Virus record (IMG/VR): IMGVR_UViG_3300033463_000070
Location: 20,700-84,699 of that record
Length of the DNA stretch: 64,000 nucleotides
From: a virus
Taxonomy: Duplodnaviria; Caudoviricetes
Direction: 5' to 3' (one strand)
Shown here: positions 20,780 to 57,282 of the stretch, piece after piece
Position numbering within the stretch: position 1 is the stretch's first letter
Layout: each line of letters begins with the position of its first letter
Position numbers and translations under genes: made by a program
The notes under the pieces: model-generated
What the model saw: only the letters and a program-made list of their open reading frames with translations
Told to the model about the DNA's origin: nothing
Database searches by the model: none

Positions 20780-21319
20780 TTAATAATTTTTTACTCTAAC
20801 TTGAAAATAAGATTGTGGATGGTCACAAACGGGACATACTTTAGGAGCTTCTTCTCCTTCATATATGTGTCCACAATTTAAGCATTGCCATTTTACTTCC
20901 TCATCACGTGCAAAAACTACATCATATTTTATATTATTTAATAATGTTTGATATCTTTTTTCATGTGCTTTTTCGATTTTAGCTACTTCTGCAAACAAGA
21001 AAGCAATATGTTCAAACCCTTCTTCTTCTGCTTCTTTTGCAAAATTTTTATACATTTCAACCCATTCATAATGTTCTCCAGCGATACCATCTTTTAAATT
21101 TTCAACTGTGTCTGGCATACCATCATGTAGGAGTTTAAACCAAATTTTTGCATGTTCTTTTTCATTATTAGCTGTTTCTGTAAAGAAATTAGCTATTTGT
21201 ACATATCCATCTTTTTTGGCTTGGCTAGCATAATAATCATATTTAGTTCTTGCCTGCGTCTCACCAGCAAATGCAGTTAATAAATTTGCTTCAGTTTTTG
21301 TTCCTTTTAAATCTTTCAT
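20780..21319 (-). CDS. rbr: Rubrerythrin
   Basis: Diiron helices ([29 protein letters not shown]) plus a C-terminal rubredoxin-like site WQCLNCG...CPVC. Confidence 0.93.
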
Positions 21320-21701: not shown

Positions 21702-21998
21702 CTATCCAAACATTGCTGTTTCTTCTTCTTCTATTTCTCCCAACTTATTTAAATCTTCCATATCCATTGGAGTAATATCAATTATATATTTTTTATTAAT
21801 AAATGCAACACGCTCGGCATTCTCTTCGTCTGGAAGCAAGTAAGTAATAACAAGTATATCATCTGTTTCATTTTGAATGAAACTCCATTGATATACTCCG
21901 TCAGCTAACGCTACGGCTAAACATATACTTGATACTTCAAGTTGAGGTATACCGAGTGTTTTTGCTATCATTTGTGTATAATTTGCCATAATAATCAA
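21702..21998 (-). CDS. Hypothetical protein coupled to nrdD
   Basis: 4-nt overlap with the nrdD stop. Acidic. Confidence 0.55.
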   Translation of the reverse strand: MIIMANYTQMIAKTLGIPQLEVSSICLAVALADGVYQWSFIQNETDDILVITYLLPDEENAERVAFINKKYIIDITPMDMEDLNKLGEIEEEETAMFG

Positions 21999-23998
21999 TT
22001 AAAAGAATGTCTATATCTATCTTTAAATTCCTGCTTTTTACCAGCGTTATAACCTAAAATAGGGATGTAATAGCCCGTAATTCTGTCGTACTGTCTTATA
22101 TTTTGAGAACCACATATATAACACTCGCTCATGGCGTCATTTAGTGTAAAATTACAATCCTCGCAATAAGAAAAAATTCTAGAGAAAGCCCAGAATAAAG
22201 TATTTGTTTGGGAAATTTTTTGATTAAGTCTCCAAATTGCTTCGGGGTCAGGATAACTTTCAGACATCCAAATATGTAATATATTACCAGCACCAGTGTA
22301 CTTATGATACTTATCGGCATTTTTAATATGTTCTACGATATTAGCATCAGATAATACTGGAATGTGAGTACTGTTAGTAAGATATAAATTGCCATTTTTA
22401 CCTTGCACTACTGTGTTAGGATATTTTTCTTTATTTATCATGGCAAAACGATGAGCTGTGCTTTCAGCTGGTGAACCAATTACTGACCATCTCCAGCCGT
22501 CTTTTTTATTATATTCTACCTTTTTATTATTCAAAAATTGAACAATAGGTTCGCCAGAATCATATCCCAATATCTTACATGCCTCATACAAACCACAAAA
22601 TCCTAAAGTATATGTACATCTATCTAAATCATACAAAGGTTTTCCAGTTTCTTTGTCTTTCCATAGCAAGAAGTCACTCATGTGATAACTAAATAATATT
22701 TTTTCTGCTTCTTTGCGTCTAAATTTCAATGTTTCATACACAATATCGCAATACTCTTCTAATACATCAAAATATGCTCGTCCTTCATCAATAGCTTTAT
22801 GAGCAATCAAAGGCAAATTTAATGTACTATACATAAAATTACCAGTATTAAGACAATCCTTAGCATAATCACCACTATAATTCATAGGTAATCGTGTCCT
22901 ACACCCCATTACTGTTGCCTCTTCATCCATACAATTCACAAAATAAATTGTAGGATTAACAGCACTTAATTCATGAAGCAATTTACAATTACCTTCATAT
23001 TTATCGAGGTCTCCCTTACGAATATTAAAAAGTGTATTAGGAAATCGATGATATGCACCTTGTCCATCCTTTTCTTGTAAAACTTCACATACTGCTCTAA
23101 ATATAAGGTCGGCTTCTTCTTGATAATCTCCATAAACTCCATTAGATACTCCTTGCGGTCCTATTGCTGGTTCATTCTTCAGTACATCTGGTATATTTAA
23201 ATCCATACCTATAGAACTAAAAAGAATTTGTCCGCCACGACATACGAGCCCCATATTACAATTAAATATAAAAGATTGTATTGATTGCTTAATATCTTTG
23301 TATACCATTCCCTTTGCATAAGGAGCTAAAAATACATTAAAATTAGCAAGACCCTGTCCTCCACTAAATACTACTGCTCCTGCCATCATTGCATGTTGTA
23401 AATGATTAAGTAATACCTCAAGAGTTTTGGCAGGTTTAGCTACACTGCCCATTTTACCTTGACCATCAATTTTTAATCCATTCTTTGCAAAAAATCTTAT
23501 ATCATAATTCATACAATTAGGACGAGTATTAAAAAACTCAAGGTCATGATGATGTACATACCCATCAATATGAGCTTGAGCACAATCATTTGGCATAGTA
23601 AGCAAAGCATATTCTTTTGCTATAGCATCATAAGCATATTTAGCTATCATCTCTGGTGAATATCCAATATTAGCATTATCTTTACAGCCATTTTTAAGTA
23701 AATCCTCAAACTCTGCCACAGACATTCCTAATTTACGAGATTGTTCTTCTGCTTCAAATTCTCTTTCTCGTAATAACCAAGAAGATACTTCGGCACGAAT
23801 AGCAGCAGTTGATATTTCTTCCATACCATCTTTTCTTAATTTATATATTTTATTTGCTATTCTTCTTTGAATTTTGTCTGCAAGTTCTTCATTAATTTTT
23901 GTTTCTTTTTGTATTGTCTGGGAAATTATTCTAGGTTTGAATGGTTCGGTTTTTCCATCTGAATGAATAACAATTATCTTTTCTGGCACATATATCAC
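21995..23998 (-). CDS. nrdD: Class III (anaerobic) ribonucleotide reductase with N-terminal ATP cone
   Basis: ATP-cone-like N-terminus, HHHDL, GGQG, MGCRT, PAES.A.RFA, YLTNSTH, C-terminal CxxC...CxxC and glycyl-radical motif RITGY. The true start is probably GTG 23989 (AGGTGA RBS). Confidence 0.95.
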   Translation of the reverse strand: MIYVPEKIIVIHSDGKTEPFKPRIISQTIQKETKINEELADKIQRRIANKIYKLRKDGMEEISTAAIRAEVSSWLLREREFEAEEQSRKLGMSVAEFEDLLKNGCKDNANIGYSPEMIAKYAYDAIAKEYALLTMPNDCAQAHIDGYVHHHDLEFFNTRPNCMNYDIRFFAKNGLKIDGQGKMGSVAKPAKTLEVLLNHLQHAMMAGAVVFSGGQGLANFNVFLAPYAKGMVYKDIKQSIQSFIFNCNMGLVCRGGQILFSSIGMDLNIPDVLKNEPAIGPQGVSNGVYGDYQEEADLIFRAVCEVLQEKDGQGAYHRFPNTLFNIRKGDLDKYEGNCKLLHELSAVNPTIYFVNCMDEEATVMGCRTRLPMNYSGDYAKDCLNTGNFMYSTLNLPLIAHKAIDEGRAYFDVLEEYCDIVYETLKFRRKEAEKILFSYHMSDFLLWKDKETGKPLYDLDRCTYTLGFCGLYEACKILGYDSGEPIVQFLNNKKVEYNKKDGWRWSVIGSPAESTAHRFAMINKEKYPNTVVQGKNGNLYLTNSTHIPVLSDANIVEHIKNADKYHKYTGAGNILHIWMSESYPDPEAIWRLNQKISQTNTLFWAFSRIFSYCEDCNFTLNDAMSECYICGSQNIRQYDRITGYYIPILGYNAGKKQEFKDRYRHSFN

Positions 23999-24042: not shown

Positions 24043-24717
24043 TTATTGATTATTTTTTGTACATAATTCAGTAAACATTTTGTCTAATTCATTCATATCT
24101 TTTTCAGAAATTTTTGAAAATCTTAAAGTTGATAATTTTGATTCAATGTTATCTAAATAAACTTTTAATTTTATCATATAATTTTTATCATCTTCATTTA
24201 AAATAAATGGTTCATCAATTATTTTACACATTGTATCAAATACTTCAATCTCCTGAAGTAAAGATTTAATATTTGCAATACTAACATTATCATTATGTAC
24301 TTGTGATATTTTTCTTTTTATCATTGCAATAAATGATATCATTGGTGGGTGTTCTTGTGCGAAAAACAATATATCATTAAAATCTTTATCCATTATAACT
24401 GCATCTGTCAAAAATTTATAATATGATGGTGACCCAAAATAATATGCAAAACCTAATAAAGCTCCTAATTCAATAAACATAAATTCATGTCCATCTATGT
24501 TTTTTGATATGTCTGAGTCAGGTCTTGTTAAAAAAGTTAAGTAATTATGCAAGGAATGAATAAATATCCCGCATACATTACCATCTTTTTCGTAGATACT
24601 AAGTATTCTAATATTGTTTTGTTCTTCAAGTGTTTGTTTTGCTATTTGTAATATTTCATCATCAATTGGTCTATTCGGATTCTTGATAATCTCCGTCATA
24701 CTCATTAACAGCACCAT
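24043..24717 (-). CDS. Possible degenerate RlaP/PF10127-like nucleotidyltransferase-fold protein
   Basis: IRILSIYE...GIFIH...YL..L...ELGALL...P..Y resembles the PF10127 scaffold, but the GS...DSDxD catalytic loop is absent. By-eye alignment only. Confidence 0.3.
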   Translation of the reverse strand: MVLLMSMTEIIKNPNRPIDDEILQIAKQTLEEQNNIRILSIYEKDGNVCGIFIHSLHNYLTFLTRPDSDISKNIDGHEFMFIELGALLGFAYYFGSPSYYKFLTDAVIMDKDFNDILFFAQEHPPMISFIAMIKRKISQVHNDNVSIANIKSLLQEIEVFDTMCKIIDEPFILNEDDKNYMIKLKVYLDNIESKLSTLRFSKISEKDMNELDKMFTELCTKNNQ

Positions 24718-25177
24718 CCACTCTAATGTCTACTAACTGTGCGAATCGTTCTCCTTTTGTTATTACAAAATCTACTGGAAGATAGTTCATAATTAAGAAA
24801 GAAAGCGAACCGAAATAGCCATTATCACCAACTGCAGTCATTACATGCGTTCCGCAACGCAATAAAGTTGAACGAGGTCTATAAAATTGTAAAGAATCTT
24901 TGTCTATTTTTATTTTATTTTGTACAGTAGCAATGTAGGGAACATTAGGTCGCAGACTGTAAACATTTTTTATCTGCCCATTAACCGATAATGCGTTCAT
25001 TACTAATTCACTTCTATCTGGAATAACTTTTAATCCATCTATAATTCCATAAAATTTATTATTTCCTACATCAAATTCTTCTATTTTTCCTAAACGCAAA
25101 TCAAGTCCACCGGGCTGAAAACACTCGTCATCAAATTCTAGATATCTTTTTCTTAATATTTTTTCGCCATTAATCAT
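24671..25177 (-). CDS. dut: Trimeric dUTPase (archaeal-type; dCTP deaminase superfamily)
   Basis: QPGGLDLR, PRSTLLR, VGDNGYFG, GERFAQLV. Lacks the dCTP-deaminase catalytic Glu after the DxGY/F.G motif. Confidence 0.75.
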   Translation of the reverse strand: MINGEKILRKRYLEFDDECFQPGGLDLRLGKIEEFDVGNNKFYGIIDGLKVIPDRSELVMNALSVNGQIKNVYSLRPNVPYIATVQNKIKIDKDSLQFYRPRSTLLRCGTHVMTAVGDNGYFGSLSFLIMNYLPVDFVITKGERFAQLVDIRVDGAVNEYDGDYQESE

Positions 25178-25833
25178 TCTTCTTCCTCCGCTACTTTTTT
25201 AAATTCTTTATAAATTTCTTTCGCAAATACAACAGCTGTTCTTTTTAAAGCTAATAAATGCAAATGCTTTCTATTACTTTTTGGATGTTTGTATTGATAT
25301 TTACTTTTATAATCTTCATATAATTGACTGTAACGATAATCATCACGTATCAATTTAACAGTACAACGCATAATAGTTTTATTTAATCCTTCACAAAAAT
25401 CAATAGGGTCTGTTTTTTTATTGGCTACTTTCTTTCCATTAATATTTCTTTTAACTTTATAATATTTATTACTACTATTTCTTATAACAGGAGCAAGACC
25501 CGCATATGATATGAAATGCTTACGATTTTTAAATCTTTTAATATCTCCTATTTCGACTATTAATTCTGCCGCATCGTATAAATTTATTGATGGAATTTCT
25601 TTCAAAAATCCCATATATTCATTTGAAAAGTATAATATATTTTGTATTTCATCTCGTAATTTTTGCAATGGTTCATCAAATGGTTTAATACTTATATCTT
25701 CAAGTCTTTTTGACCTTGATTCATTTATATTTCCAAGCATTTTTAATCGATGTTTATTACTTCTGGATGCTTGAAAAACAGTTTTATTTGTATTAAATAA
25801 TATAGTTAAAACTTTTCTTTCGTTTGTATCCAT
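25174..25833 (-). CDS. IS110/IS116/IS902-family C-terminal (Tnp/Nop-like) domain protein lacking the RuvC domain
   Basis: LKEIPSINLYDAAELIVEIGDIKRF...SYAGLAPVIRNSS matches Transposase_20. Only about 65 helical residues precede it, with no DEDD domain. Has its own GAGGT RBS. Confidence 0.78.
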   Translation of the reverse strand: MDTNERKVLTILFNTNKTVFQASRSNKHRLKMLGNINESRSKRLEDISIKPFDEPLQKLRDEIQNILYFSNEYMGFLKEIPSINLYDAAELIVEIGDIKRFKNRKHFISYAGLAPVIRNSSNKYYKVKRNINGKKVANKKTDPIDFCEGLNKTIMRCTVKLIRDDYRYSQLYEDYKSKYQYKHPKSNRKHLHLLALKRTAVVFAKEIYKEFKKVAEEEE

Positions 25834-25835
25834 AA

Positions 25836-26450
25836 CTATAACCTCAATATATTTTTCTTTGCTTTCTTGCTTAATCGAGGAACTTCATCAAGTTCTTCTT
25901 CAGTTGCATTTAACACAGCACTTGGTGTTCCAAAATGTTTAAGCAATTTTTTAGCTGTTTGTTTTCCCACTCCATCTATACCAATTAATACATTTTCAAA
26001 TGCATTAGATGTTTTGGGTCTAACATTAGGAACTTCAATAGGTTTATCTGCTTTTTCTACTGCATTAATAATAGCAAGAATACATTCAACAAAATGAACA
26101 AAATTTTCAACCCAAAATACTGGAACATGATATCGAATTGTTAATGATGCGATATTTGCATATCGTTGAGTTAATGTTTGTTTGGAATATTTAGAATTTA
26201 ATTTACCATCATTATAACATATTATATATGAATACGGATATTTTTGTTTCATTTTAATTGCTTCTTCTTGTATTCTACGATTGGTGCACGAAGATATAAA
26301 ATCTTGTCTCGTTTTTACTTCAATAGCAATTTTATTATTAATAATAATATCTCCAGTTTCTAATCGCTCAACAGTTACATCAAAATATTGTTCTAACCGT
26401 TTAATTCGACGTGGGTCTTCTCTATCATCAACAGTGATTTTTATCATCAT
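25836..26450 (-). CDS. ERCC4/XPF-type nuclease with C-terminal (HhH)2
   Basis: VDDRE, LETGD, IEVKT..DF..S (ERKxxxD-like), then LIGIDGVGKQTAKKLLKHFG...LDEVPRL. Resembles the archaeal Hef C-terminal domain. Confidence 0.88.
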   Translation of the reverse strand: MMIKITVDDREDPRRIKRLEQYFDVTVERLETGDIIINNKIAIEVKTRQDFISSCTNRRIQEEAIKMKQKYPYSYIICYNDGKLNSKYSKQTLTQRYANIASLTIRYHVPVFWVENFVHFVECILAIINAVEKADKPIEVPNVRPKTSNAFENVLIGIDGVGKQTAKKLLKHFGTPSAVLNATEEELDEVPRLSKKAKKNILRL

Positions 26451-26459
26451 ATTTTCCTC

Positions 26460-27407
26460 CTATATATATAAATTTTGACCTTTACATTCGTTTGAACAAC
26501 ATATACCATTTGCTTTTTGAGTAGGACAGGAAGAAAATAATATATCATCTCTTGAAAAAAGATACTCTAATTGTCCTTCTTCTTCTATACAATGATAGAA
26601 TTTGTTTGATGATAATGATTGTTCTAATATATGTTCTACTTCTTCCTCAGAATAACCATCATCACGTAAATAACATATTAATTCACGACGTTCATGGTAT
26701 CCTAAATCAGGAGTAGATAATAAACATTTTACACAAGGAGGAAATTCGGTACTAAAATCAATTTTTCCTATCGTTTCTGCTTTTAATGGTGATATGATTT
26801 GCTTTGTTTCGTCAAAAGGTTGTAGTGATAATCTTGTTTTTCCATGTATATAGTCACAATTATTGTTATTCTTTTTTGCCAATTTACATATATCATTATA
26901 TGATAGTTCAAATAACTGTTCATATGTAATTGGAATACAATACAAACCAGTTTTTAAATTCTTAGTACCTATTATCCTTGATACCCTTCGTAGGTCACCT
27001 ATAACAGCTGGGTCTGACGTAGATTGTGTTCTCTGATGTAAATCTTTGACAAATTTTTTAATTGCTAATTTAGGTTGCTGCAAACTTTCCTCCGGTTTAG
27101 TCATTATAAAAATATGAAAGCCTCGACCACTAAACCGAATAAAGAACAAATAATCCTTGTTATTTAAGTACTCTGCCACCCTGCGTACATCTTCATAGAA
27201 CTTCAAATCTTTATCGTAATCAAAATCCAAAAATACTCTATCTACATAAGCATTTTGAGCATTAGGAATATCTTTATAATCATACACAGATACATACATA
27301 TTTTTTTTACCATTATATATCTGAATAAATTTATTAATCTCTTCTTTGTCTTGAACTGTTATTCTTATTTTTGGGATAAATAATTCTTTAACTAACATCT
27401 TCATCAA
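26460..27407 (-). CDS. Archaeo-eukaryotic primase, PriS catalytic domain fused to a PriL-like Fe-S domain
   Basis: FLDFD (motif I), SGRGFH (motif II), D..RVSR..GT.N (motif III). C-terminal FPPC...HERR...SC....GIC...EC. Confidence 0.85.
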   Translation of the reverse strand: MMKMLVKELFIPKIRITVQDKEEINKFIQIYNGKKNMYVSVYDYKDIPNAQNAYVDRVFLDFDYDKDLKFYEDVRRVAEYLNNKDYLFFIRFSGRGFHIFIMTKPEESLQQPKLAIKKFVKDLHQRTQSTSDPAVIGDLRRVSRIIGTKNLKTGLYCIPITYEQLFELSYNDICKLAKKNNNNCDYIHGKTRLSLQPFDETKQIISPLKAETIGKIDFSTEFPPCVKCLLSTPDLGYHERRELICYLRDDGYSEEEVEHILEQSLSSNKFYHCIEEEGQLEYLFSRDDILFSSCPTQKANGICCSNECKGQNLYI

Positions 27408-27795
27408 TCTCCAACAAATCTATATTATGTTGGAATTCAGCATCTAACACCATTTCAGCTAATTTAACTGCAAATTGACAACCCGGGTCCATTGATAAAC
27501 CCGAATCTGTATCAATTTCGTAATACGGCCATTCTAAACATGCATCAAATCGTGTAGCATATTCATCACATGTTTTTCCGTTAAAATATTTACAATTTAT
27601 TGTTTTACAACATTCTCCACATTGCTTACAAAACTCTGGATAGTCTTGTACCATTTCAAAAGTAAAATAATTTTCTGAAGCACGCATTAATACTGTATCA
27701 ATTATATCAGCAATTAAATCATCTTCCAATTGAGGATATTTCATTGTGTATTTGTCTATCATTTTTTTTATAAATTTTAAATGATTAATTGGCAT
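27388..27795 (-). CDS. YkgJ-like CxxCxxCC cysteine-cluster protein
   Basis: CKQCGECC...CKYF...CDEYATRFDACLEWPY. Confidence 0.75.
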   Translation of the reverse strand: MPINHLKFIKKMIDKYTMKYPQLEDDLIADIIDTVLMRASENYFTFEMVQDYPEFCKQCGECCKTINCKYFNGKTCDEYATRFDACLEWPYYEIDTDSGLSMDPGCQFAVKLAEMVLDAEFQHNIDLLEIDEDVS

Positions 27796-28538
27796 TAGAT
27801 ACCCCCCATATCCTTACACATTTCTTGATACCCGCAGTAACTGCAAAGATACTGATGTTCAGGATATAAATTATTTTCTTCAACTTCTTTTCTTATAAAA
27901 TCAAGCAAATTAATAGCCGCCTGTTCATCTTTTTTTGTAACAAAAGAACCTTTTTCTTGTTCTTCACAAAAATTAGTAAACTTCATTCCACCATCTTTAG
28001 TAAAAACTATGCCTGCTGATATAACATTTTTATCTGGATATTTGTAATTAATAAGCATTTTGTAATAAGTCAACTCAAGAAGATATTTTTTAATTGGATT
28101 TGTTTTACTTGTTTTGTAATCAATGATAATTAAGTCACCATCTTCATTTTCTAATACTAAATCAGCTAACCCACTAAAATTATGTTCTGTATCATGAATA
28201 TATTCTTCACTACTAAACACATGATAAATCTCATTTTTATCAAGAAAAGCTTCTTCAAAAAAATGTGCAAGATGATATAAATGTGTTTTTAAATCAAATT
28301 CTGTATCCATTGATGTATATATATTTAATAATTGTTGGTAAAAATCATCATCCATATTAAATTCTTGAACAAACCTTTCAGCAATTTCATGAACTTCTGT
28401 CCCACGTCGCATATACTCATTCGGTTCTTGCTTTATTTTATCGATATAACTTAACATAAATTCACGTCTGCATTTAAGAAAGGAATTAACTGCGGATTTT
28501 GAAAGCTTCATTTTATTCATCTCCTTTCCAGTGAGCAT
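27795..28538 (-). CDS. Cas4/RecB-like PD-(D/E)XK nuclease (solo, no CRISPR)
   Basis: LSKS.V.SF.KC, GT.VH, GLADLV, IIDYKT and C-terminal CSYCGYQEMC (4-Cys staple). Confidence 0.85.
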   Translation of the reverse strand: MLTGKEMNKMKLSKSAVNSFLKCRREFMLSYIDKIKQEPNEYMRRGTEVHEIAERFVQEFNMDDDFYQQLLNIYTSMDTEFDLKTHLYHLAHFFEEAFLDKNEIYHVFSSEEYIHDTEHNFSGLADLVLENEDGDLIIIDYKTSKTNPIKKYLLELTYYKMLINYKYPDKNVISAGIVFTKDGGMKFTNFCEEQEKGSFVTKKDEQAAINLLDFIRKEVEENNLYPEHQYLCSYCGYQEMCKDMGGI

Positions 28539-29124
28539 CTAGTCCAACATAATGAAATCTTCCCGGTTTGATTCCTAATTTGTCTGCTACATATAATTGT
28601 ACTGTCATAAGAGCATACATATTTGATGGAAATGCATATCTTATATCATTTGACCTAAATATAACTGTCATTTCTAGTTGTCTTTGATATATAGAACATT
28701 TTATCATAATTAAGCAAGGAATATCTTCAAGATATGTATCTGTCTGTGGGTCATATGTTATTGCGATAGCTCTACGAGTATTTTCATCTTCTTTAAGTCT
28801 ATCAATCATAACTTGATATTGGTCTACATCAAAATATTCTATTAGTCTATTCCCATATGTATATACAAAATCATGTATATTTCCATCTAATAATTGGTCA
28901 GCATATTTTTGTAAACCCTCATTATTAAAAAAGGTATTTTTTGGTACTTTGACCGCTTTTGCATATCCAAAATCATTAATATGGTCTTCAAAATGTAATG
29001 CTACAAAAGGAATTTGATAAACAATATCTCCTCTTTGGTCAATTACTTTCTTACCTTGTGTCGTTATTATGTAATATAAATAATTAAATGCATCATCTAT
29101 ATTATCATAAACTTTATTACTCAA
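28513..29124 (-). CDS. thyA: Thymidylate synthase, archaeal (methanogen-like) type
   Basis: YTYGNRL, RRAIA, DIPCL (catalytic Cys), FRSND, PSNMYAL, DAH. Confidence 0.88.
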   Translation of the reverse strand: MSNKVYDNIDDAFNYLYYIITTQGKKVIDQRGDIVYQIPFVALHFEDHINDFGYAKAVKVPKNTFFNNEGLQKYADQLLDGNIHDFVYTYGNRLIEYFDVDQYQVMIDRLKEDENTRRAIAITYDPQTDTYLEDIPCLIMIKCSIYQRQLEMTVIFRSNDIRYAFPSNMYALMTVQLYVADKLGIKPGRFHYVGLDAHWKGDE

Positions 29125-29591
29125 TTTATTGCCTCCTCTATTAATTTATGGATTATATTGATAGTGAACCATTCTTCAAAATAACACCCTCCAATATAAT
29201 ATCCGTCATAATATAATCTAAATGGTCTATTTCTATTTTGATTTTTGTGACTTATATAATGTGTCTTTTTACTATCCCAAAATTTATATTTTCCATTATT
29301 TTTTCTTTTAGGATATTGTCCAATTCCCCCTTTAGTGAAATTAAACTTAGGATTATAATACTTTATAAATAATCGTTCATAAGCATCTAATTCGTCCTTA
29401 GAACATTCCACTTCAATTTGAATAGAATATCGTAAAGGGTCTGATTGTAATACCCTATTAATTGGTTGAGTATTTTTAGAGCTTTTAATTAAATGTTGTC
29501 TATGTCTTTTATATATATCTTTGCTTTGTCCTATGTATACAACTTTAAAGTCATTTTTTATATCTCTGTAACTATAAATTCCGCATGGCAC
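29121..29591 (-). CDS. Free-standing GIY-YIG homing endonuclease
   Basis: GIYSY...VYIGQSKDIYKRH.QH...E..FI. Overlaps the thyA start by 4 nt. Confidence 0.85.
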   Translation of the reverse strand: MPCGIYSYRDIKNDFKVVYIGQSKDIYKRHRQHLIKSSKNTQPINRVLQSDPLRYSIQIEVECSKDELDAYERLFIKYYNPKFNFTKGGIGQYPKRKNNGKYKFWDSKKTHYISHKNQNRNRPFRLYYDGYYIGGCYFEEWFTINIIHKLIEEAIN

Positions 29592-29622: not shown

Positions 29623-32115
29623 TTAAATATATGTTTGTTTAACTGCATTTATAAATGTATCGCTATTTTTACTTGGTTTATATTCTATAAACATTCCTGC
29701 CACAATTCCCTCTGGCAAAATATTATAACCACTTTTACAAGTGATTTTACTACAAGGACCCTCTGGCTCCATTAACGATAATCTTAAACATTTATTTCCT
29801 TTCTTACTTATAAAGTAAGTTGCTTGCTTTACTAATGCTTTACGAGTATATTTCTTACTTGCTAGCATACTTGTTATTAATTGATATGATGTTCCATTAA
29901 TGTAAGCTTCTTCTGCCATAAATGGGTCATGAACACTATAATCAATCAAGAAATGCATATATAATTTGCCATCATAACAATGACATTTTGTAATAATAAC
30001 ATGTCCTGTCTCGAAATAATCACCATACTTTGCTACAATAGCTTCAGAACATGATATACTTTGATTAACATCTTTATTCTGTAAATGAAGAATACTATAT
30101 CCTTGTTGATTATCTACGTCAATTATCACACCTTTAACATACATTTCTTCATTATCTTCATCAGTTGCATTAAGTAAAGGAGTTAACATATTATCATAAG
30201 GTGTTTTTACACTATCAATATATTCTTCTCTAATAGAAAATGATATTGCAGAGAATTCTTTGTCTAATATTTCTTTTTTGGTGTATATTCGTTCTTCGTA
30301 ACCTTTTTCTCCTTTCTTTAAGAAATTAAGCAACTCGCCACGCTTATCTATGATGTCCTGCATATCTGTAAGACCAAAATCAAATGCACCTGCACCAATT
30401 AAATTTTCTTTACATCGTTTATTACACTCTCTTGGTGCCATTCTCTGACAAAAGTTATCGAATGATTCAAAATCACCATTAGCTCTTTCTTTTAAGATAG
30501 CTGTGGATACTTTATCAGATATTGTATTAATAATATTAAGACCGATATAAATTTTATTATCTACAATAGTTGTTTCGGCTTCACTTAAATTAATATCTGG
30601 TGAACATAATTCTGCATCACTATCTTTTATCATATTTAGTATCTCTATCCTTTTTTCTTCTTCGCTATTCTTTACATTTTGAAGCATAGCAACAGCAAAC
30701 TCTAAAGGATAGTAAGTTTTTAACCAAGCAGATTGATAAGCAAGAACTGCATATCCACATGCATGTGCCCTGTTAAATGAATAATCAGATGATTTTTCAA
30801 TATTATCCCATAATTTCTTAGCAACTTCTTCATCTACATTATTATCTATACAACCATTAATAAATTTAGGTTTAAATATATCAAATGCTTCTTTTTTCTT
30901 TTTAGAAATTGCTTTACGAAGATTATCTGTTTCAACATCACTCATACCTGCAAGGTCACGAGCAACTGCCATAGCATCTTCTTGGAAAATCATAAGTCCT
31001 TGAGTACTACCTAATGTATCTTTTAATCTTTCATCAAGATATTCAGGCTCTTTACGACCAAATTTATAATCAGCATATAATTTATCCATTCCTGAATTCC
31101 TAGCTCCCGGTCTTATTAATGATACTAGAGCCATTAACTCATTAAAATTCTCAGGCTGTACCATTTTGACTCCAGCTCTTCCCGCAGCTTTTTCTAATTG
31201 AAATAGCCCCATGGGATTTTTACAAATAGATTCGTAAACTTTAGGGTCGTCAAATTCATATGGTAAATTTACATCATCTTTAATAAGATTTAAACAATCA
31301 CGTTGAACATCAAGAACTTTAATACCTAATGTATCGTTTTTTAAAAATCCAAGTGCATTACATTCGCTTCCATTGTTGGATATAATTGGTTTACCACTTA
31401 CACTTATAACAGAACAATATTTATCCATTATATCATCTAAGATAATCATAGCACCAGCATGAACACCATAGTTTTTAGTTAAACCTGCTAATGGGTCAAT
31501 ATAATCTCTTACTTGCGGGTTTTTATCTAAAAATTCCATTATTTTTTTATTATTGTGATAATCATCTTCTTTATTAGATAAAAATGAAGTAACTTTATTA
31601 ACTTGTGCGAAGTCTAAACCTAATCGTGCAGATAAATCTTTAATTAATACTTTTGGTGTAAAATTAACTTTATTTAAAACCTGACCACATCTATCTTCAC
31701 CAAAATGTTCTCTAATCAAATTCAATACATCGTCTCTACCATCAGAACTAACATCTGTATCTATATCTGGTAAACTTCTCTGTATCCTTGTTTTATTAAG
31801 AAATCTAGCAAAAGATAAATTATATGGTTTTGGGTCTATCTTTGTGATATTAAGAAAGTAACAAACTACGGAAGCAAGACAACTACCTCTTGCTGGGCCT
31901 CTGAATATATCTGCTTCATCTATTAATGCACATATATATGCTGTATTCAAAAAGAAATCTTCTAAATCAGCTCCAAGAATAACATCAAGTTCTTCTTCAA
32001 GTCTATCATGATACCAAGAATCATCATAGCAACCTTTAACCTTCATACCTTTGATACACATATCTTTAATATATTTTTTATTATCAATAGATTTAGGTTT
32101 AAAATCTCTAATCAT
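29623..32115 (-). CDS. dnaE: Family-C DNA polymerase (DnaE/Pol III alpha), polymerase part lacking the PHP domain
   Basis: GPARGS, LPDIDTD, GVHAGA, KNDTLG, GLFQLE, LIRPG, IFQED, YSFNRAHA, YPLEF and a C-terminal OB-like region. GAGGTGAG RBS. Confidence 0.93.
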   Translation of the reverse strand: MIRDFKPKSIDNKKYIKDMCIKGMKVKGCYDDSWYHDRLEEELDVILGADLEDFFLNTAYICALIDEADIFRGPARGSCLASVVCYFLNITKIDPKPYNLSFARFLNKTRIQRSLPDIDTDVSSDGRDDVLNLIREHFGEDRCGQVLNKVNFTPKVLIKDLSARLGLDFAQVNKVTSFLSNKEDDYHNNKKIMEFLDKNPQVRDYIDPLAGLTKNYGVHAGAMIILDDIMDKYCSVISVSGKPIISNNGSECNALGFLKNDTLGIKVLDVQRDCLNLIKDDVNLPYEFDDPKVYESICKNPMGLFQLEKAAGRAGVKMVQPENFNELMALVSLIRPGARNSGMDKLYADYKFGRKEPEYLDERLKDTLGSTQGLMIFQEDAMAVARDLAGMSDVETDNLRKAISKKKKEAFDIFKPKFINGCIDNNVDEEVAKKLWDNIEKSSDYSFNRAHACGYAVLAYQSAWLKTYYPLEFAVAMLQNVKNSEEEKRIEILNMIKDSDAELCSPDINLSEAETTIVDNKIYIGLNIINTISDKVSTAILKERANGDFESFDNFCQRMAPRECNKRCKENLIGAGAFDFGLTDMQDIIDKRGELLNFLKKGEKGYEERIYTKKEILDKEFSAISFSIREEYIDSVKTPYDNMLTPLLNATDEDNEEMYVKGVIIDVDNQQGYSILHLQNKDVNQSISCSEAIVAKYGDYFETGHVIITKCHCYDGKLYMHFLIDYSVHDPFMAEEAYINGTSYQLITSMLASKKYTRKALVKQATYFISKKGNKCLRLSLMEPEGPCSKITCKSGYNILPEGIVAGMFIEYKPSKNSDTFINAVKQTYI

Positions 32116-32124
32116 TCACTCACC

Positions 32125-33063
32125 TCATACTACTTTCTTAAGAAAAATTTTTTCAAAATCCAAATGCTTATCAAATTTAGGAATCACCCTATCATATTCT
32201 GGCATTTCAAAATAACATTTTTCAGCTATTTTATGAGTATTATCAATACACAATTGTATTATATCATCATCTACTCCTGACATTCTTCCAAATTTATAAC
32301 ACAACTCTGTATTACCTAACACATTACTTTCAAGTGTATCTGATATTTCTGATTCAGCTTTTTTCCAATTAATGCTTTGTAATTTTTTTCTTAATATCCT
32401 ACCCGCATCAGTAAGAACATGACTATCAAAAGTATTAATTAACCATTTGCAATCAGTATCTTCATATAATTTTATAAGTTTTTCATTTAATATGTTCTGA
32501 GGATATAATCCTTTGTCATTTTGCCAAGTTGGATGATATTGAAGCTCTATTGCAACATTATCTTTGCCAAATTTATCAAGCAATTTATTAAGAAAGGAAT
32601 AAGCTATGTCATCTTGTCCTTTTTCGAAGTTTTGACATATATATGATAATGCACAAGCAGTTGATACAAAAATTCCTTCTGTATTTTCAAATAAAATATC
32701 ATGAGGAAGTAAAGGTTTATAATAAAAATGGTCAGTAACAGATAATCTTTGCATTTTACGAATATTAGTTGCTCCTACATCATTCATAGCCAAACAAACT
32801 AAATGATAACGATTTCTGTCTTGTGGCTTTTCTAAAGTAGGTTTGCAATAAAATTCGTTTCCAAAAATTGGTTTAACATTTGATTGCTTACATTCCTGCT
32901 GTAGAGCATACCAATTAGCTACTGTACCATGGTCAGTAATTGCAATATACTCTTGACCATAATCTTCTACTTGTTTAACTAAATCCGGAATTTTGATGAC
33001 AGAATCACCAATACTAGCATCAGTATGTAAATGAAGATTTACGAAATTTTTTGTATTTGTCAT
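32125..33063 (-). CDS. dnaE: Stand-alone PHP domain of DnaE (N-terminal part of the split polymerase)
   Basis: HLHTDAS, ITDHG, GNEFY, HLVCLA, ELQYH, FDSH, NT..IAEKC. AAGGAG RBS favours ATG 33063 over 33090. Confidence 0.92.
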   Translation of the reverse strand: MTNTKNFVNLHLHTDASIGDSVIKIPDLVKQVEDYGQEYIAITDHGTVANWYALQQECKQSNVKPIFGNEFYCKPTLEKPQDRNRYHLVCLAMNDVGATNIRKMQRLSVTDHFYYKPLLPHDILFENTEGIFVSTACALSYICQNFEKGQDDIAYSFLNKLLDKFGKDNVAIELQYHPTWQNDKGLYPQNILNEKLIKLYEDTDCKWLINTFDSHVLTDAGRILRKKLQSINWKKAESEISDTLESNVLGNTELCYKFGRMSGVDDDIIQLCIDNTHKIAEKCYFEMPEYDRVIPKFDKHLDFEKIFLKKVV

Positions 33064-34102
33064 ATAAAAATTCTCCTTTTTCAATTTCATTAATCATTTT
33101 ATTATATTTTTGCTTATCTTGAATATCCCAATTATATCCGTCTTTTGTTACTATATCTTTTAATTTAAATAAATCTGTATTTTGTTTTCTGTATATTACC
33201 TGTCCATTTTTCTCAATTATATATTTAAAAGTATATCCTTGTTTAGCATTTGTTTTACAAGTGCTTAAATGTAATACTCCTGTAGGATTAGTTTTTTGTA
33301 TTTTTCCGTATGCCATTAAATTATCTCCCCTTTTTATAAGTTTATCTGTATTTTCATTGTAAAATAATTTTGCCCATGGTAATTTTTTTGCCTCTACTTT
33401 TTTCTTTAATTCGTAAAAATTTTTTGATGTTAAAGAATAATTATCATATTTGTACATCCATATATTTGTTGTGTTATTATAACTGACCCCAAAATATCCT
33501 GATGTATTTTGAGCGATTTTAAAAAAATCTTTTTCTGAAAAAATATTAAAATCAACATAAGTTTCTTTTTTAATTTTTTCTACTTCATCATTATGAAATA
33601 TTTTCTTCCATAATAATCCCTGTGATTTAACTTTATATTCAAGTATATTTATATTTTTAGATGATATTTTACATCTTCGTTTATTTTTGTAATAAGAATA
33701 AATCCAACGAAAATTTTGAGTACCATGACAATCTACTTGTTTATATACTCTATAATACCCTGTCTTATTACCTCTATTTTTAGACATTTTTTCACGTGTT
33801 TTTTGTGACAAATGAAAAACATCTCCACCAGATGATAAATTATAATGTTTATCATCTTTATATGTATTATAATATTGTATCCAATATTTTTCTCGTTCAT
33901 TTAATATATCTCTATTACATTTTTCAACAATAATTAAATTAAAATTATTTTTTTTATATTTATTAATTGCTCTATCAATATAAGAATTTTCAATACAATC
34001 TGACTTACAATGTTCATTAAATCTCTGTTCTATATTAATTGATTGCCCAATATACATCTGTCCTGTTTTTTTGTTTTTTATCATATAGATGCCACAAGTC
34101 AT
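33020..34102 (-). CDS. GIY-YIG homing endonuclease with repeated C-terminal DNA-binding modules
   Basis: GIYMI...MYIGQS..I..RF..H...LNERE.YWI...YNL. Repeats NKTGYYRV / NTSGYFGV / NPTGVLHL. GAGGT RBS favours ATG 34102. Confidence 0.88.
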   Translation of the reverse strand: MTCGIYMIKNKKTGQMYIGQSINIEQRFNEHCKSDCIENSYIDRAINKYKKNNFNLIIVEKCNRDILNEREKYWIQYYNTYKDDKHYNLSSGGDVFHLSQKTREKMSKNRGNKTGYYRVYKQVDCHGTQNFRWIYSYYKNKRRCKISSKNINILEYKVKSQGLLWKKIFHNDEVEKIKKETYVDFNIFSEKDFFKIAQNTSGYFGVSYNNTTNIWMYKYDNYSLTSKNFYELKKKVEAKKLPWAKLFYNENTDKLIKRGDNLMAYGKIQKTNPTGVLHLSTCKTNAKQGYTFKYIIEKNGQVIYRKQNTDLFKLKDIVTKDGYNWDIQDKQKYNKMINEIEKGEFLYDKYKKFRKSSFTY

Positions 34103-34103
34103 A

Positions 34104-34307
34104 TTAAAACCTCTTGAGGTCATCTATACTAAGACTTAATAAAAAATCAGGTTCGGGGATTTCAATTTTAATAACATTATTACGAATGTTACGATGATGA
34201 ACTACCCCATAATTTCCTTTTGTCTTTGTTACTACTTTATCTTTTGTTTTTTTGTATAAATTTAATATATTTAATCCATCATGATATAATATGTCATAAT
34301 CATTCAT
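34104..34307 (-). CDS. Hypothetical protein
   Basis: ORF track, coupled overlap. Confidence 0.5.
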   Translation of the reverse strand: MNDYDILYHDGLNILNLYKKTKDKVVTKTKGNYGVVHHRNIRNNVIKIEIPEPDFLLSLSIDDLKRF

Positions 34308-35191
34308 TTTTTATTCCCTTGTTTATTGTTATTTTTGGGAAATATTAAATCAAATAACTCATCATATTGAGTTTCAAGAGTATCTTCAACATTGTTTACT
34401 CTCATAAATATATGTCTTTTGTTTACTAAAAATATATCGCCCCTATCTTTTTGTATAGTTGCAACATAATTATCAATTGAACCTTCTGTTTCACGTGTTA
34501 ATATTATTCTCATTGAACATTCATCAATTAATCTTTGTTTTACTGAAGCAAATTTATCGTCATCTGCTAATTCAGGTATGAAATCAGAGTGTGATATAAA
34601 TACCACTGGTACATCTAAATCCATATATGCTGATGAAAATTCTCTAAAGAATTTATTTCTTAATTTCCATATTGCTAATTGTGCTCCACTATCTGCGTCC
34701 AAATTTCTTTCTAAACGCATTTTAGCTTCTGCGAATTCAAGCAAGAAAGAAACTCCATCAACTATAACACCTTTAATGTTTATGCCGTTTTCTATTGCCA
34801 TACGTACTGTTCCGGCTGCTGATGTTACATTATTAACAGTGGCTTCTTCATCTTTAACTGATGCTCCTTTATTGTTAGTTTTGAATTCATTAGGATTATA
34901 TACTTTAATTTGTCCTTTTTGATAATATTCTTCATAAAAAATTTGAATAATTTCTTTTCCAGAATTATCCACATCTATATAAAAAATTACCTCATCATCT
35001 TTTAAATCACGAGTTAATAAAGATAGTGAAAGTGAAGTTTTAGCTGTACCATTCTCTCCAGATAATAATATTTTTTTATTAACTTTTGCATCTTCTTTTT
35101 TCTTATCTGACTCAAAAATTTCTTTAAAAATAGTTTCAGACAAAGTTTCCTTACTTTTATTAGTTTTTAATGCTTTATTTCCGATTGCCAT
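34304..35191 (-). CDS. AAA/RecA-like ATPase (AAA_24/Sak4-like recombinase candidate)
   Basis: Walker A GENGTAKTS, YIDVD, Walker B VIVDG, VVFISH. Confidence 0.65.
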   Translation of the reverse strand: MAIGNKALKTNKSKETLSETIFKEIFESDKKKEDAKVNKKILLSGENGTAKTSLSLSLLTRDLKDDEVIFYIDVDNSGKEIIQIFYEEYYQKGQIKVYNPNEFKTNNKGASVKDEEATVNNVTSAAGTVRMAIENGINIKGVIVDGVSFLLEFAEAKMRLERNLDADSGAQLAIWKLRNKFFREFSSAYMDLDVPVVFISHSDFIPELADDDKFASVKQRLIDECSMRIILTRETEGSIDNYVATIQKDRGDIFLVNKRHIFMRVNNVEDTLETQYDELFDLIFPKNNNKQGNKK

Positions 35192-35539
35192 TGTGTCACC
35201 TCTTTAGTTAATTCTAAAAATCGTTTTTCTTTTTTTTCGATTACTGATTTTAATTTAGCTAAAACAAATAAATCAGTAATATTATTATAATCTTCATACA
35301 ACATATTTAATTCCTTATTAAGACTCTCTCCTTGTCGATGAAGCTCCTGTGAGTATAGATTTTCTTCCAACATAATCATCCACCACATTATTCAATTCAT
35401 TTAATATAATTGCTTTTGATATAGGATGTTTTACTAATATAAAATCTTTTTCAAGATTTTGAATTCGAGTACGTACTTCACGAGTACGTATCTCAAATAA
35501 TTTATCAGAATTTTCAAAATCTTTTGGTTGATAAGGCAT
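35167..35539 (-). CDS. Two small helical hypothetical proteins (35167-35388, 35318-35539)
   Basis: ORF track, overlapping operon arrangement. Confidence 0.45.
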
Positions 35540-36516
35540 TATAGTTCTACCTCTTCTGATATAGGTAAAAAACCACCTACATGATAATTAATTTCACCAT
35601 CTTTTTTCTTATATGCATTAACAAAAAGATATCCATATGCACCATCGTAAATATTCAATCCTGCAAGTTCAGTCGGAGTAAACCAAACATCAGCATCGTC
35701 TTCTCCAATTTCAAAATTGACTACAACATTTTTGGTAGGGTCATCATTAGTTCTAATATCAATACATTCTCCTTCAATTACACCAAAAACATTTCTATCA
35801 AAATTTTTAGATTCTAAATATTGCAACAAATCAGCAGAAGATTCAAAAATGATATCTCCGAAAAATTGTCTAACATAATTTAAATAGACATCAATAGTAT
35901 CATCATCAAATGCATCAGTATCATCTGTTACAATCGCATTATTAAAGTATTGTATTTTACTACCTTTTATAATTTTACTTGCATTTCCCTCTTTTAAAGT
36001 AAATTTAGCTTCTTTACAAATAGGTACTACTTTTTTCATAGCATAACTGCCAATACTAATTTCACGAGGAACTACTTTATCACCATCTTGAAAAATTCCA
36101 ATAGCATTAGCAGTAGCATAATTTTTATCAATTACTTTGCCTTTATTAAATCCTTCAGTGTGAAGATATTCTCCTTCTCCTTTTGCCATACCTTTTTTAA
36201 TTGCTGCTTCTAAACCATGTTCTTTAACAAAATTATTAACTTGATTCCATGCATAGTTATTATAACTGTTAGTTCTGAATCTCATGAGTAAAAAACCATC
36301 CATTCTGTATCCAGATTGAACCAATCTTTTTAAACTTCCTCTAGTTTTTCTTAAACTTCTTAAAGTTTTTGTAGCATCATCCATATCAGATGGCATTTTC
36401 TCATAAATTTCATTAAAAATGCTATCCATTTCTTCTTGGCTAATACCATGTTCTTCAGCAAATTTTGTGTTTTTTTCTTGTTCACGTTCTATCTTATTCA
36501 TTATAATTTCCTCCAA
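35539..36516 (-). CDS. Putative ssDNA-binding (OB-fold/RPA-like) protein
   Basis: First gene after a strong promoter, upstream of the ATPase. Helical N-terminus with beta-rich aromatic C-terminal part. Fold not confirmed. Confidence 0.35.
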   Translation of the reverse strand: MEEIIMNKIEREQEKNTKFAEEHGISQEEMDSIFNEIYEKMPSDMDDATKTLRSLRKTRGSLKRLVQSGYRMDGFLLMRFRTNSYNNYAWNQVNNFVKEHGLEAAIKKGMAKGEGEYLHTEGFNKGKVIDKNYATANAIGIFQDGDKVVPREISIGSYAMKKVVPICKEAKFTLKEGNASKIIKGSKIQYFNNAIVTDDTDAFDDDTIDVYLNYVRQFFGDIIFESSADLLQYLESKNFDRNVFGVIEGECIDIRTNDDPTKNVVVNFEIGEDDADVWFTPTELAGLNIYDGAYGYLFVNAYKKKDGEINYHVGGFLPISEEVEL

Positions 36517-56853: not shown

Positions 56854-57282
56854 TTATTTCCTCATATAATTTTTTAGTGTTCTTTTTGCAAGCCTATCTG
56901 CTCGCTTATTGTTTCTTCTATTTATTTGTTTGATTTGTACATTGTGGACGGAATTATATGTCCGATATACTTCATCAAGCAAATGTCTATTTTTTAATTG
57001 CTTTTTACCTTGCTTTTTAACTCTCTTATAGAAATCAGGCATTGATTTGTTCAGATTTACTACAGCACAATTGTCGCTATGGATAACAATTCTGCTTGTA
57101 TCAAATCTTGAAAGCAATAAAGCTTGATAGATAGCAAATAATTCGCAATATTCGCTATCTAAATCTAGTTTTTCGAGAGTTCCACTGTATTCATTTTCTT
57201 CATCTACTACTGCCCATGAACCTTTGTGTTTTTGATGGCAACATGAACCATCTACGTAGATGTGTCGCTCCATATCAATCAC
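56854..57282 (-). CDS. rnhA: Ribonuclease HI-like protein
   Basis: YVDGS, CELFAI..AL, IHSDN, N..ADRLAK (four acidic catalytic positions). Confidence 0.8.
   Translation of the reverse strand: MIDMERHIYVDGSCCHQKHKGSWAVVDEENEYSGTLEKLDLDSEYCELFAIYQALLLSRFDTSRIVIHSDNCAVVNLNKSMPDFYKRVKKQGKKQLKNRHLLDEVYRTYNSVHNVQIKQINRRNNKRADRLAKRTLKNYMRK

Follow-up and report, generated by a model that had tools for sequence, protein, structure and literature searches.

A family C DNA polymerase encoded by two genes in a tailed virus that probably infects gut or rumen methanogens

The family C DNA polymerases (DnaE, the alpha subunit of DNA polymerase III, Pol III) are treated as the replicases of bacteria. According to a 2024 survey, archaeal viruses encode family B polymerases (PMC11348598), which is also the textbook view. 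A literature search, which did not cover the methanogen-virus compendium of Medvedeva et al. 2023, found no paper on DnaE or family C polymerases in archaeal viruses. The subject of this article is the DnaE encoded on a 64,000-nucleotide (nt) stretch of DNA from a tailed virus (Caudoviricetes), hereafter the window, which corresponds to bases 20700-84699 of the 84.7-kb IMG/VR record IMGVR_UViG_3300033463_000070 (G000; CheckV completeness, 58%). An original prediction, made from the letters of the window, had presented this bacterial-type enzyme among archaeal-looking genes as a cross-domain chimera; the same combination is, however, already annotated in a cultured virus.

This virus, Methanobacterium virus PhiF1 (GenBank MK994522; host, Methanothermobacter thermautotrophicus), provides the best isolate match for the polymerase core of the window. 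Its ORF58 and ORF57 are both annotated as 'putative DNA polymerase III DnaE superfamily protein' and, as in the window, the gene bearing the PHP domain lies directly upstream of the one encoding the polymerase core. The order of the replication module is also nearly identical (ATPase, ThyA, PHP, core, PD-(D/E)XK, PriL-like, ERCC4, Transposase_20-like, NrdD), and nine window proteins have PhiF1 counterparts at 25-40% identity (tblastn). The two viruses nevertheless differ in many respects. The core and the PHP protein are each only 30% identical to those of PhiF1, ORF58 possesses an N-terminal uracil-DNA glycosylase (UDG) domain for which the window PHP protein gives no match, ORF57 carries a palm insertion of ~350 amino acids (aa) unlike the window core, and the ThyA gene is located upstream of the PHP gene in PhiF1 but downstream of the core gene in the window. 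Furthermore, PhiF1 has a 74-kb genome and a thermophilic host, whereas the genomes of the window virus family reach ~140-150 kb with 28-30% GC and originate from gut or rumen samples.

Closer relatives come from metagenomes. Three IMG/VR genomes that are 96-100% complete, G001 (139 kb), G002 (152 kb) and G003 (145 kb, with terminal repeats), display tail and replication modules collinear with those of G000; G001 has homologues for 42 of the 114 open reading frames (ORFs) of G000, with a mean identity of 43%, and the mean protein identity between G003 and G000 is ~41%. The 108-kb Logan contig L060, whose DnaE core is 97% identical to that of the window, is collinear with it from the gene of the putative single-stranded-DNA-binding protein (SSB) to the histone gene. 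In most relatives, DnaE is distributed over three genes. These three-gene viruses (139-158 kb; G001, G003, P0002-P0120) have cores 63-75% identical to the window core, collinear replication and tail modules, a histone gene and proteins with pseudomurein-binding repeats (PMBR), but the counterpart of residues 585-830 of the window core is a third gene, whereas the window has this C-terminal domain as part of the core protein. What the window adds to a layout already known from PhiF1 and many related metagenomic viruses is thus a two-gene member with a fused C-terminus.

The bacterial Pol III alpha subunits of known structure, from Thermus aquaticus (2hpi, 3e0d) and Mycobacterium tuberculosis (5lew, 7pu7), share with the window enzyme the domain order, the catalytic aspartates and the PHP ligand motifs, with pairwise E-values of 1e-72 to 1e-79 for the core. 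Bacterial DnaE1 is a single polypeptide of 1150-1220 aa that has a beta-clamp motif and a tau-binding C-terminus and that works with DnaN and a clamp loader. By contrast, the window DnaE departs from the single polypeptide typical of DnaE, since it is split; no beta-clamp motif was recognised in it and no beta clamp encoded by the virus was detected. No beta clamp is to be expected in an archaeal host either. A split enzyme is also found in the large tailed Rhodococcus phage Grayson, in which gp102 (PHP, 303 aa) and gp103 (942 aa) are encoded by adjacent separate genes, as in the window. Grayson differs by its bacterial host, by its neighbouring genes (DnaG-type primase, RecA, MazG) and by the lack of a supported sister relation to the clade to which the window enzyme belongs.

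Considered together with these systems, the window can be read as part of a ~150-kb tailed virus of pseudomurein-walled methanogens that makes a family C replicase from two separately translated genes and supplies it with partners of its own, a reading to which a probability of about 0.8 can be given. The original prediction placed one dnaE gene at 29623-33063. Domain matches bear out the assignment to family C, but this interval holds two genes, one for a PHP protein and one for the polymerase core (Table 1). The PHP ORF matches PF02811 (4.3e-31) and phrog_405 'DNA polymerase' (4e-66, profile positions 40-342). Its longest version, 32125-33090(-), would encode 321 aa from the first ATG; comparison with L060 makes Met10 of this ORF (ATG at 33063) the likely start, giving ~312 aa, and the predicted end of dnaE fits this start. 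The core matches DNA_pol3_alpha (PF07733, 1.6e-48), DNA_pol3_finger (PF17657, 1.7e-36, residues 287-426) and HHH_6 (PF14579, 7e-20, residues 502-579) in the canonical order, and aligns with positions 291-1119 of the 1146 of NF004226, the model of replicative Pol III alpha (3e-137, 459 bits). A weak OB match is obtained for P0254, a relative of the fused type.

The catalytic motifs PDIDTD and KNDTLG, previously said to be intact, are both present in the translation, within LPDIDTDVSS and FLKNDTLG, and align with the PDIDTD and KMDFLG of T. aquaticus Pol III alpha, which carry the catalytic Asp triad. The PHP motifs HxH, DHG, GxE, HL and C are also intact and align with those of the T. aquaticus enzyme; the final D-x-H pair was identified by reading the sequence alone. 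Between the window and L060, dN/dS amounts to 0.053 for the core (dS 0.30) and 0.13 for PHP (dS 0.63). The window DnaE is intact and under purifying selection.

The split of DnaE is real. The two genes meet in the sequence GTA GTA TGA GGT GAG TGA ATG, in which a Shine-Dalgarno sequence, GAGGTGAG, overlaps the stop codon of the PHP gene. A separate core is encoded by more than 100 protein clusters (64-80% identity, on contigs of up to 158 kb), and a separate PHP gene was found directly upstream of the core gene at every relative locus inspected (L002, L052, L053, L060 and L061 among them).

The host of the window virus is very probably an archaeon of the Methanobacteriales, because of the histone, the methanogen-type ThyA, the Hef nuclease, the PRK02253-type dUTPase, a BRE/TATA-like motif, the PMBR proteins and tRNA-Tyr of relatives, and the module shared with PhiF1. 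Within this order, it is probably a Methanobrevibacter or Methanosphaera of gut or rumen. The archaeal setting of the original prediction is therefore retained, as are the histone, ERCC4 and archaeal ThyA that it named. The histone (NF043032) has PDB matches to HPhA (5e-11) and HMfB (2e-10) and is kept in G001 (51%), G003 (43%) and L060. The ERCC4 protein scores 96 bits on the Hef nuclease model NF010337, matches Aeropyrum XPF (2bgw, 5e-10) and has a homologue in PhiF1 (ORF54). ThyA scores 173.3 bits on TIGR03283 (cut-off 174.55) versus at most 39 bits on bacterial ThyA models. Its nearest named cellular homologue is the ThyA of Methanobrevibacter oralis (37%), and it is 34% identical to PhiF1 ORF59; a search of genome contigs with ThyA returned solely a distant Bacteroidales match. 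PMBR repeats exceed the Pfam cut-off in G001, G002 and G003 (36.7-50.7 bits), pseudomurein being the wall polymer of Methanobacteriales. Furthermore, the tRNA-Tyr of G003 measures 74 nt and, with a variable loop of 5 nt, is of the class-I form. Class-I tRNA-Tyr is typical of archaea and eukaryotes, whereas bacterial tRNA-Tyr belongs to class II.

Two expression signals had also been taken as archaeal. The BRE-TATA signal holds: the pattern AAANNTTTAWATA occurs 8 times versus 2.3 expected; 7 of these occurrences share the strand of the genes, and several immediately precede a gene, among them the genes of the histone, the rubrerythrin, the SSB and the primase-helicase. The GGTGA ribosome-binding site, on the other hand, is an ordinary Shine-Dalgarno sequence and does not discriminate between bacteria and archaea.

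The relationships of the enzyme were addressed by an exhaustive HMMER search with the window core, which ranked its own family first, then ~800-aa cores with 32-38% identity that also cover the C-terminal domain and, in a third tier, a plateau of DnaEs of bacterial length (~1150 aa, 33-35% identity), the named ones being from Thermoanaerobaculia and Sulfurihydrogenibium. Two of the intermediate clusters were inspected. Both belong to tailed viruses (contigs, 105-124 kb) in which the core gene is preceded by a separate PHP gene and followed by genes for ERCC4 and dUTPase proteins; this second metagenomic family with a related DnaE spans 105-128 kb. In trees based on quick searches and SH-aLRT support only (LG+G4 on 60 rows, C20 mixture model on 32 rows), a branch with a support of 98 (LG+G4) or 92 (C20) has the window family, PhiF1 ORF57 and the second metagenomic family together on one of its sides, apart from bacterial and phage DnaEs. 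The DnaEs of named bacteriophages (Moorella, Bacillus, Staphylococcus, Streptomyces) cluster with those of cells. With PhiF1 on the same side of this branch, a bacterial-type DnaE captured once, long ago, by viruses of Methanobacteriales would be the simplest reading of the sequences.

The phylogeny proposed earlier as a check thus delivers an archaeal-virus clade but no donor: neither tree (60 and 32 rows) contains a supported bacterial or phage sister, and the split DnaE of Grayson joins the archaeal-virus group with a support of 31, i.e. unsupported. The predicted transfer from a phage to an archaeal virus is accordingly not demonstrated and is a guess. Within the clade, DnaE gene structure is fluid. 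The architectures include an unsplit PHP-core protein (P0254), UDG-PHP-core in one protein (P0255, P0293), a UDG-PHP protein with a separate core (PhiF1), separate PHP and core proteins (window), separate PHP, core and C-terminal-domain proteins (most relatives) and cores carrying inteins.

Several points weigh against a viral replicase in an archaeal host. Some of them concern the role of the enzyme. Pfam models for PolA, PolB, DnaN, PCNA and gp45 have no match in G000 or G001-G003 and, because PolA and PolB were not detected in G000 or in the three complete relatives, DnaE is the only recognisable polymerase; in the missing part of G000, a second polymerase is excluded only by analogy with these relatives. 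Furthermore, neither a clamp or clamp loader nor a clamp-binding motif could be recognised for the window DnaE. The lack of a clamp and of its binding motif would also suit an alternative in which the PHP-core pair is active as a repair or translesion enzyme (DnaE2/ImuC-like) or as an accessory enzyme, while the PolB/PolD of the host replicates the viral DNA, and NCBIfam does return the error-prone polymerase model NF004225. This model reaches only 298 bits, however, versus the 459 bits of NF004226, so that the best model is a replicative one. The ligand motifs of the PHP proofreader are intact, purifying selection is strong, and the gene is central to a full replication module in which it encodes the sole polymerase of complete relatives. 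A repair or accessory role is unlikely.

With regard to processivity, the end of the core differs between the window and its relatives. In the three-gene relatives (L019-L023, P0002-P0120), the 599-aa core terminates in a conserved ...Q[SA]R[LF][IVC]-COOH, at the position of the internal beta-clamp motif of bacterial DnaE, and in a few lineages the core endings are PIP-like (QxTLxxF). Beyond its HhH domain, the window core shows no QL[SD]LF-like beta-clamp motif, the linker that follows AGAFD being FGLTDMQDIIDKRGELLNF, and its fused form is devoid of the Q[SA]R[LF][IVC] tail segment altogether. It may be, as a tentative proposal held at rather less than even odds, that the clade of Methanobacteriales viruses (window family, 105-128-kb family, PhiF1) uses a family C enzyme captured once and now clamp-independent or re-tooled for archaeal PCNA, the tail of the three-gene forms being a trace of this re-tooling and the fused form of the window having dispensed with it. 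Two conserved proteins were considered as clamps and rejected: orf325 models as a tandem-OB, SSB-like protein, and the model of orf224 is weakly nucleotidyltransferase-like.

Other points against the reading concern the host and the clade. The PMBR match in G000 itself is sub-threshold (E 0.032) and lies on a Peptidase_C39 protein, the tRNA-Tyr comes from a relative as distant as G003, one protein of a relative (P0107) is labelled 'Bacilli bacterium' in a metagenome-assembled genome (MAG), the nearest named homologues of a viral bile-salt hydrolase (41-43% identity) belong to Lactobacillales, and clade support in the quick DnaE trees is moderate. It is gene content and relatives that tie the virus to methanogens. 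An alternative, namely a phage infecting a low-GC bacterium (Bacilli- or Mollicutes-like), with an ordinary phage DnaE and some acquired archaeal-looking genes, would account for the MAG label and for the hydrolase homologues; DnaE is a bacterial and phage enzyme, which Grayson also possesses as split PHP and core, and a GC content of 28-29% is compatible with many Bacilli. The label, however, derives from binning only, and such a phage would have to combine the histone, the methanogen-type ThyA, the Hef nuclease, relatives with PMBR proteins and a class-I tRNA-Tyr, and a module common with a cultured Methanothermobacter virus. No DnaN, DnaB/DnaG-type or other bacterial hallmark gene was seen among the ORFs scanned. 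A bacterial host is therefore quite improbable.

Several other genes touch on the question of the host. The choloylglycine (bile-salt) hydrolase is encoded in the tail-fibre region of G000, upstream of the window (L003:9626-10465). The enzymes of the viral clade have 253-302 aa versus 324 aa for those of Lactobacillales. It was dropped as a host marker, its nearest named homologues being Lactobacillales enzymes at 41-43% identity. A Peptidase_C39-like cysteine protease, likewise encoded upstream in G000 (L003:4474-5151), shows a weak PMBR-like stretch at its N-terminus; this architecture recalls pseudomurein endoisopeptidases, and the protein may be a lysin or an entry enzyme. A search for Peptidase_C71 (PeiW/PeiP) was negative, but none of the control genomes gave a match either. 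The tail/adhesin genes (L003:13162-14349 and window 13264-18573 (+)) encode Chlam_PMP repeats, beta-helix and Big_1 domains; Big_1 and faint Chlam_PMP matches are also found in large surface proteins of Methanobrevibacter oralis loci (L009-L018).

The shared frame of the PHP and core ORFs of the window, parted only by TGA-GGT-GAG-TGA, could suggest a single protein made by TGA read-through or recoding, or stop codons due to sequencing errors. In L060, however, both genes end with TAA, are separated by an 11-nt spacer and lie in different frames, and therefore read-through and sequencing error are excluded. Furthermore, among the 91 ORFs of the whole record that reach 100 aa, 30 terminate with TGA, the core is preceded by a Shine-Dalgarno sequence and an ATG, and more than 100 relatives have a separately called core, those examined having a separate PHP gene as well. 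TGA recoding or read-through is rejected on these grounds, and a one-protein enzyme is very improbable. An assembly chimera, which has the mixed gene ancestry as its sole support, has a negligible probability, as the same gene order (SSB, ATPase, PHP, core ... ERCC4, NrdD ... histone) recurs in L060, G001, G003 and L002, independent assemblies from other samples, and base composition is even across the window (GC ~28%).

Table 1. Features of the DnaE locus and of the replication module, in window coordinates
Feature	Position	Strand	Evidence
Archaeal HMfB-type histone, 66 aa	19488..19688	-	PF00808 38.9 bits, NF043032 65.6 bits
Rubrerythrin, full-length, beside NrdD	20780-21319	-	NF045767 256 bits
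Anaerobic ribonucleotide reductase NrdD with ATP cone	21995..23998	-	PF13597 2e-124; PhiF1 ORF51 40%
Conserved 224-aa protein (orf224) between dUTPase and NrdD genes	24043-24717	-	model
dUTPase / dCTP-deaminase-like enzyme	24671..25177	-	PF22769 1e-16; NF002598 (PRK02253) 5e-25
IS110-family C-terminal (Transposase_20) domain protein	25174..25833	-	PF02371 3e-12
ERCC4 + HhH2 nuclease, archaeal Hef/XPF type	25836..26450	-	PF02732 6.8e-15, HHH_5
Primase-associated protein, weakly PriL-like, 315 aa	26460..27407	-	phrog_16345 'primase' 1e-13
Cysteine-rich 135-aa protein, eight invariant Cys	27388..27795	-	alignment, 54-71% identity among 8 viruses
PD-(D/E)XK (Cas4/Dna2-like) nuclease	27795..28538	-	PF12705 5.6e-20; PhiF1 ORF56 31%, equal module position
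Methanogen-type thymidylate synthase ThyA	28513..29124	-	TIGR03283 thy_syn_methano
Free-standing GIY-YIG endonuclease gene between DnaE core and thyA	29121..29591	-	Pfam 2.4e-08
DnaE polymerase core, 830 aa: palm, thumb, fingers, HhH, fused C-terminal (OB-region) domain	29623..32115	-	
Inter-gene junction: TGA, GGTGAG, TGA, then ATG; 9 nt	32116..32124	-	
PHP subunit of split DnaE, putative proofreading exonuclease	32125..33063	-	Pfam PHP, phrog_405
GIY-YIG homing-endonuclease-like gene, overlapping the PHP gene on its upstream side	33020..34123	-	Pfam 2.3e-11
RecA/KaiC-like ATPase, recombinase or loader candidate	34304..35191	-	PF06745 + PF13479, both sub-cut-off
Tandem OB-fold protein, probable SSB, 325 aa (orf325)	35539..36516	-	AlphaFold2 pLDDT 88, pTM 0.77
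RNase H	56854..57282	-	PF00075 3.5e-13
D5/P4-type primase-helicase (SF3 helicase domain), 669 aa	61351..63360	-	PF19263 DUF5906 2e-10, TIGR01613 4e-11, PHROG 'DNA primase'

The DnaE genes are embedded in a module of replication and nucleotide metabolism genes (Table 1). Of the further components announced for the replisome, the RNase H is present and the putative OB-fold SSB is borne out by modelling; for the primase and helicase, the SF3/D5-type helicase is found, but the AEP domain attributed to the primase gives no PDB sequence match, and a resemblance of the N-terminus to D5_N / PriCT-2 / Prim-Pol is a weak Atlas lead. The orf325 product, which has no Pfam or PHROG match, is a probable single-stranded-DNA-binding protein according to its model. 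Indeed, Foldseek relates it, with probabilities of 0.95-1.0 and low TM-scores, to Teb1 AB, RPA70 DBD-A/B, Pyrococcus RPA and Thermus/Deinococcus SSB. Related viruses encode longer homologues whose C-termini are acidic, SSB-like tails (DLGGDEE, DYGEENV). The RecA/KaiC-like ATPase is 31% identical to PhiF1 ORF60. The PriL-like protein matches PF04104 below the cut-off (0.0019) and is 38% identical to PhiF1 ORF55; its PriL fold has no PDB sequence match and is indicated by weak Atlas leads only.

Several other proteins of the module are of less obvious function. The cysteine-rich 135-aa protein, whose gene adjoins that of the PriL-like protein, contains C-x2-C-x2-CC and four more cysteines. It is among the best-conserved module proteins without family assignment (no match in Pfam or PHROG) and may be an Fe-S or zinc protein. 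The Transposase_20 protein lacks a recognisable catalytic N-terminal domain and is found at an equal position, beside the ERCC4 nuclease, in G001, G003, L002, L060 and PhiF1 (ORF53); it looks like a domesticated component of the module rather than a transposon. The modelled orf224 consists of a small sheet and a helical bundle, with a weak likeness to Pol-beta-superfamily nucleotidyltransferases (Foldseek E ~5e-3). The viral rubrerythrin may serve to shield NrdD, which is oxygen-sensitive, or else the infected host.

The replication genes of these viruses are also a hot spot for selfish elements. The GIY-YIG protein encoded upstream of the PHP gene has 367 aa in the window versus 174 aa in L060 (L060:4440-4964), and the downstream GIY-YIG gene has no counterpart at this place in L060, where only 26 nt separate the core gene from that of ThyA. 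Furthermore, the DnaE cores of relatives carry inteins, and the NrdD gene of G001 has a ~350-aa insert. Such elements may be at the origin of the gene splits.

The function proposed for this module is as follows. The PHP and core products would reassemble non-covalently into an enzyme similar to Pol III alpha, the PHP protein docking on the core as in the bacterial subunit and supplying proofreading, and this enzyme would copy the viral genome. Its partners would be the D5/P4-type primase-helicase, the PriL-like accessory protein, the tandem-OB SSB, the RecA/KaiC-like ATPase and the RNase H, together with the PD-(D/E)XK and Hef/XPF-type nucleases. Nucleotides would be supplied by NrdD, the methanogen-type ThyA and the dUTPase.

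By itself the window is of limited value, since an equal arrangement is already known from PhiF1 and many sister contigs. The group to which its virus belongs is nevertheless large and abundant in gut and rumen, and its DnaE genes provide a marker for such viruses in metagenomes, where they may be mis-binned as bacterial, as with the 'Bacilli bacterium' label. Globally, gut and rumen methanogen viruses relying on DnaE would constitute a natural experiment, in which a bacterial replicase operates in an archaeal cell without beta clamp, clamp loader or tau scaffold. More largely, methanogen virus biology is relevant to the methane that ruminants emit.

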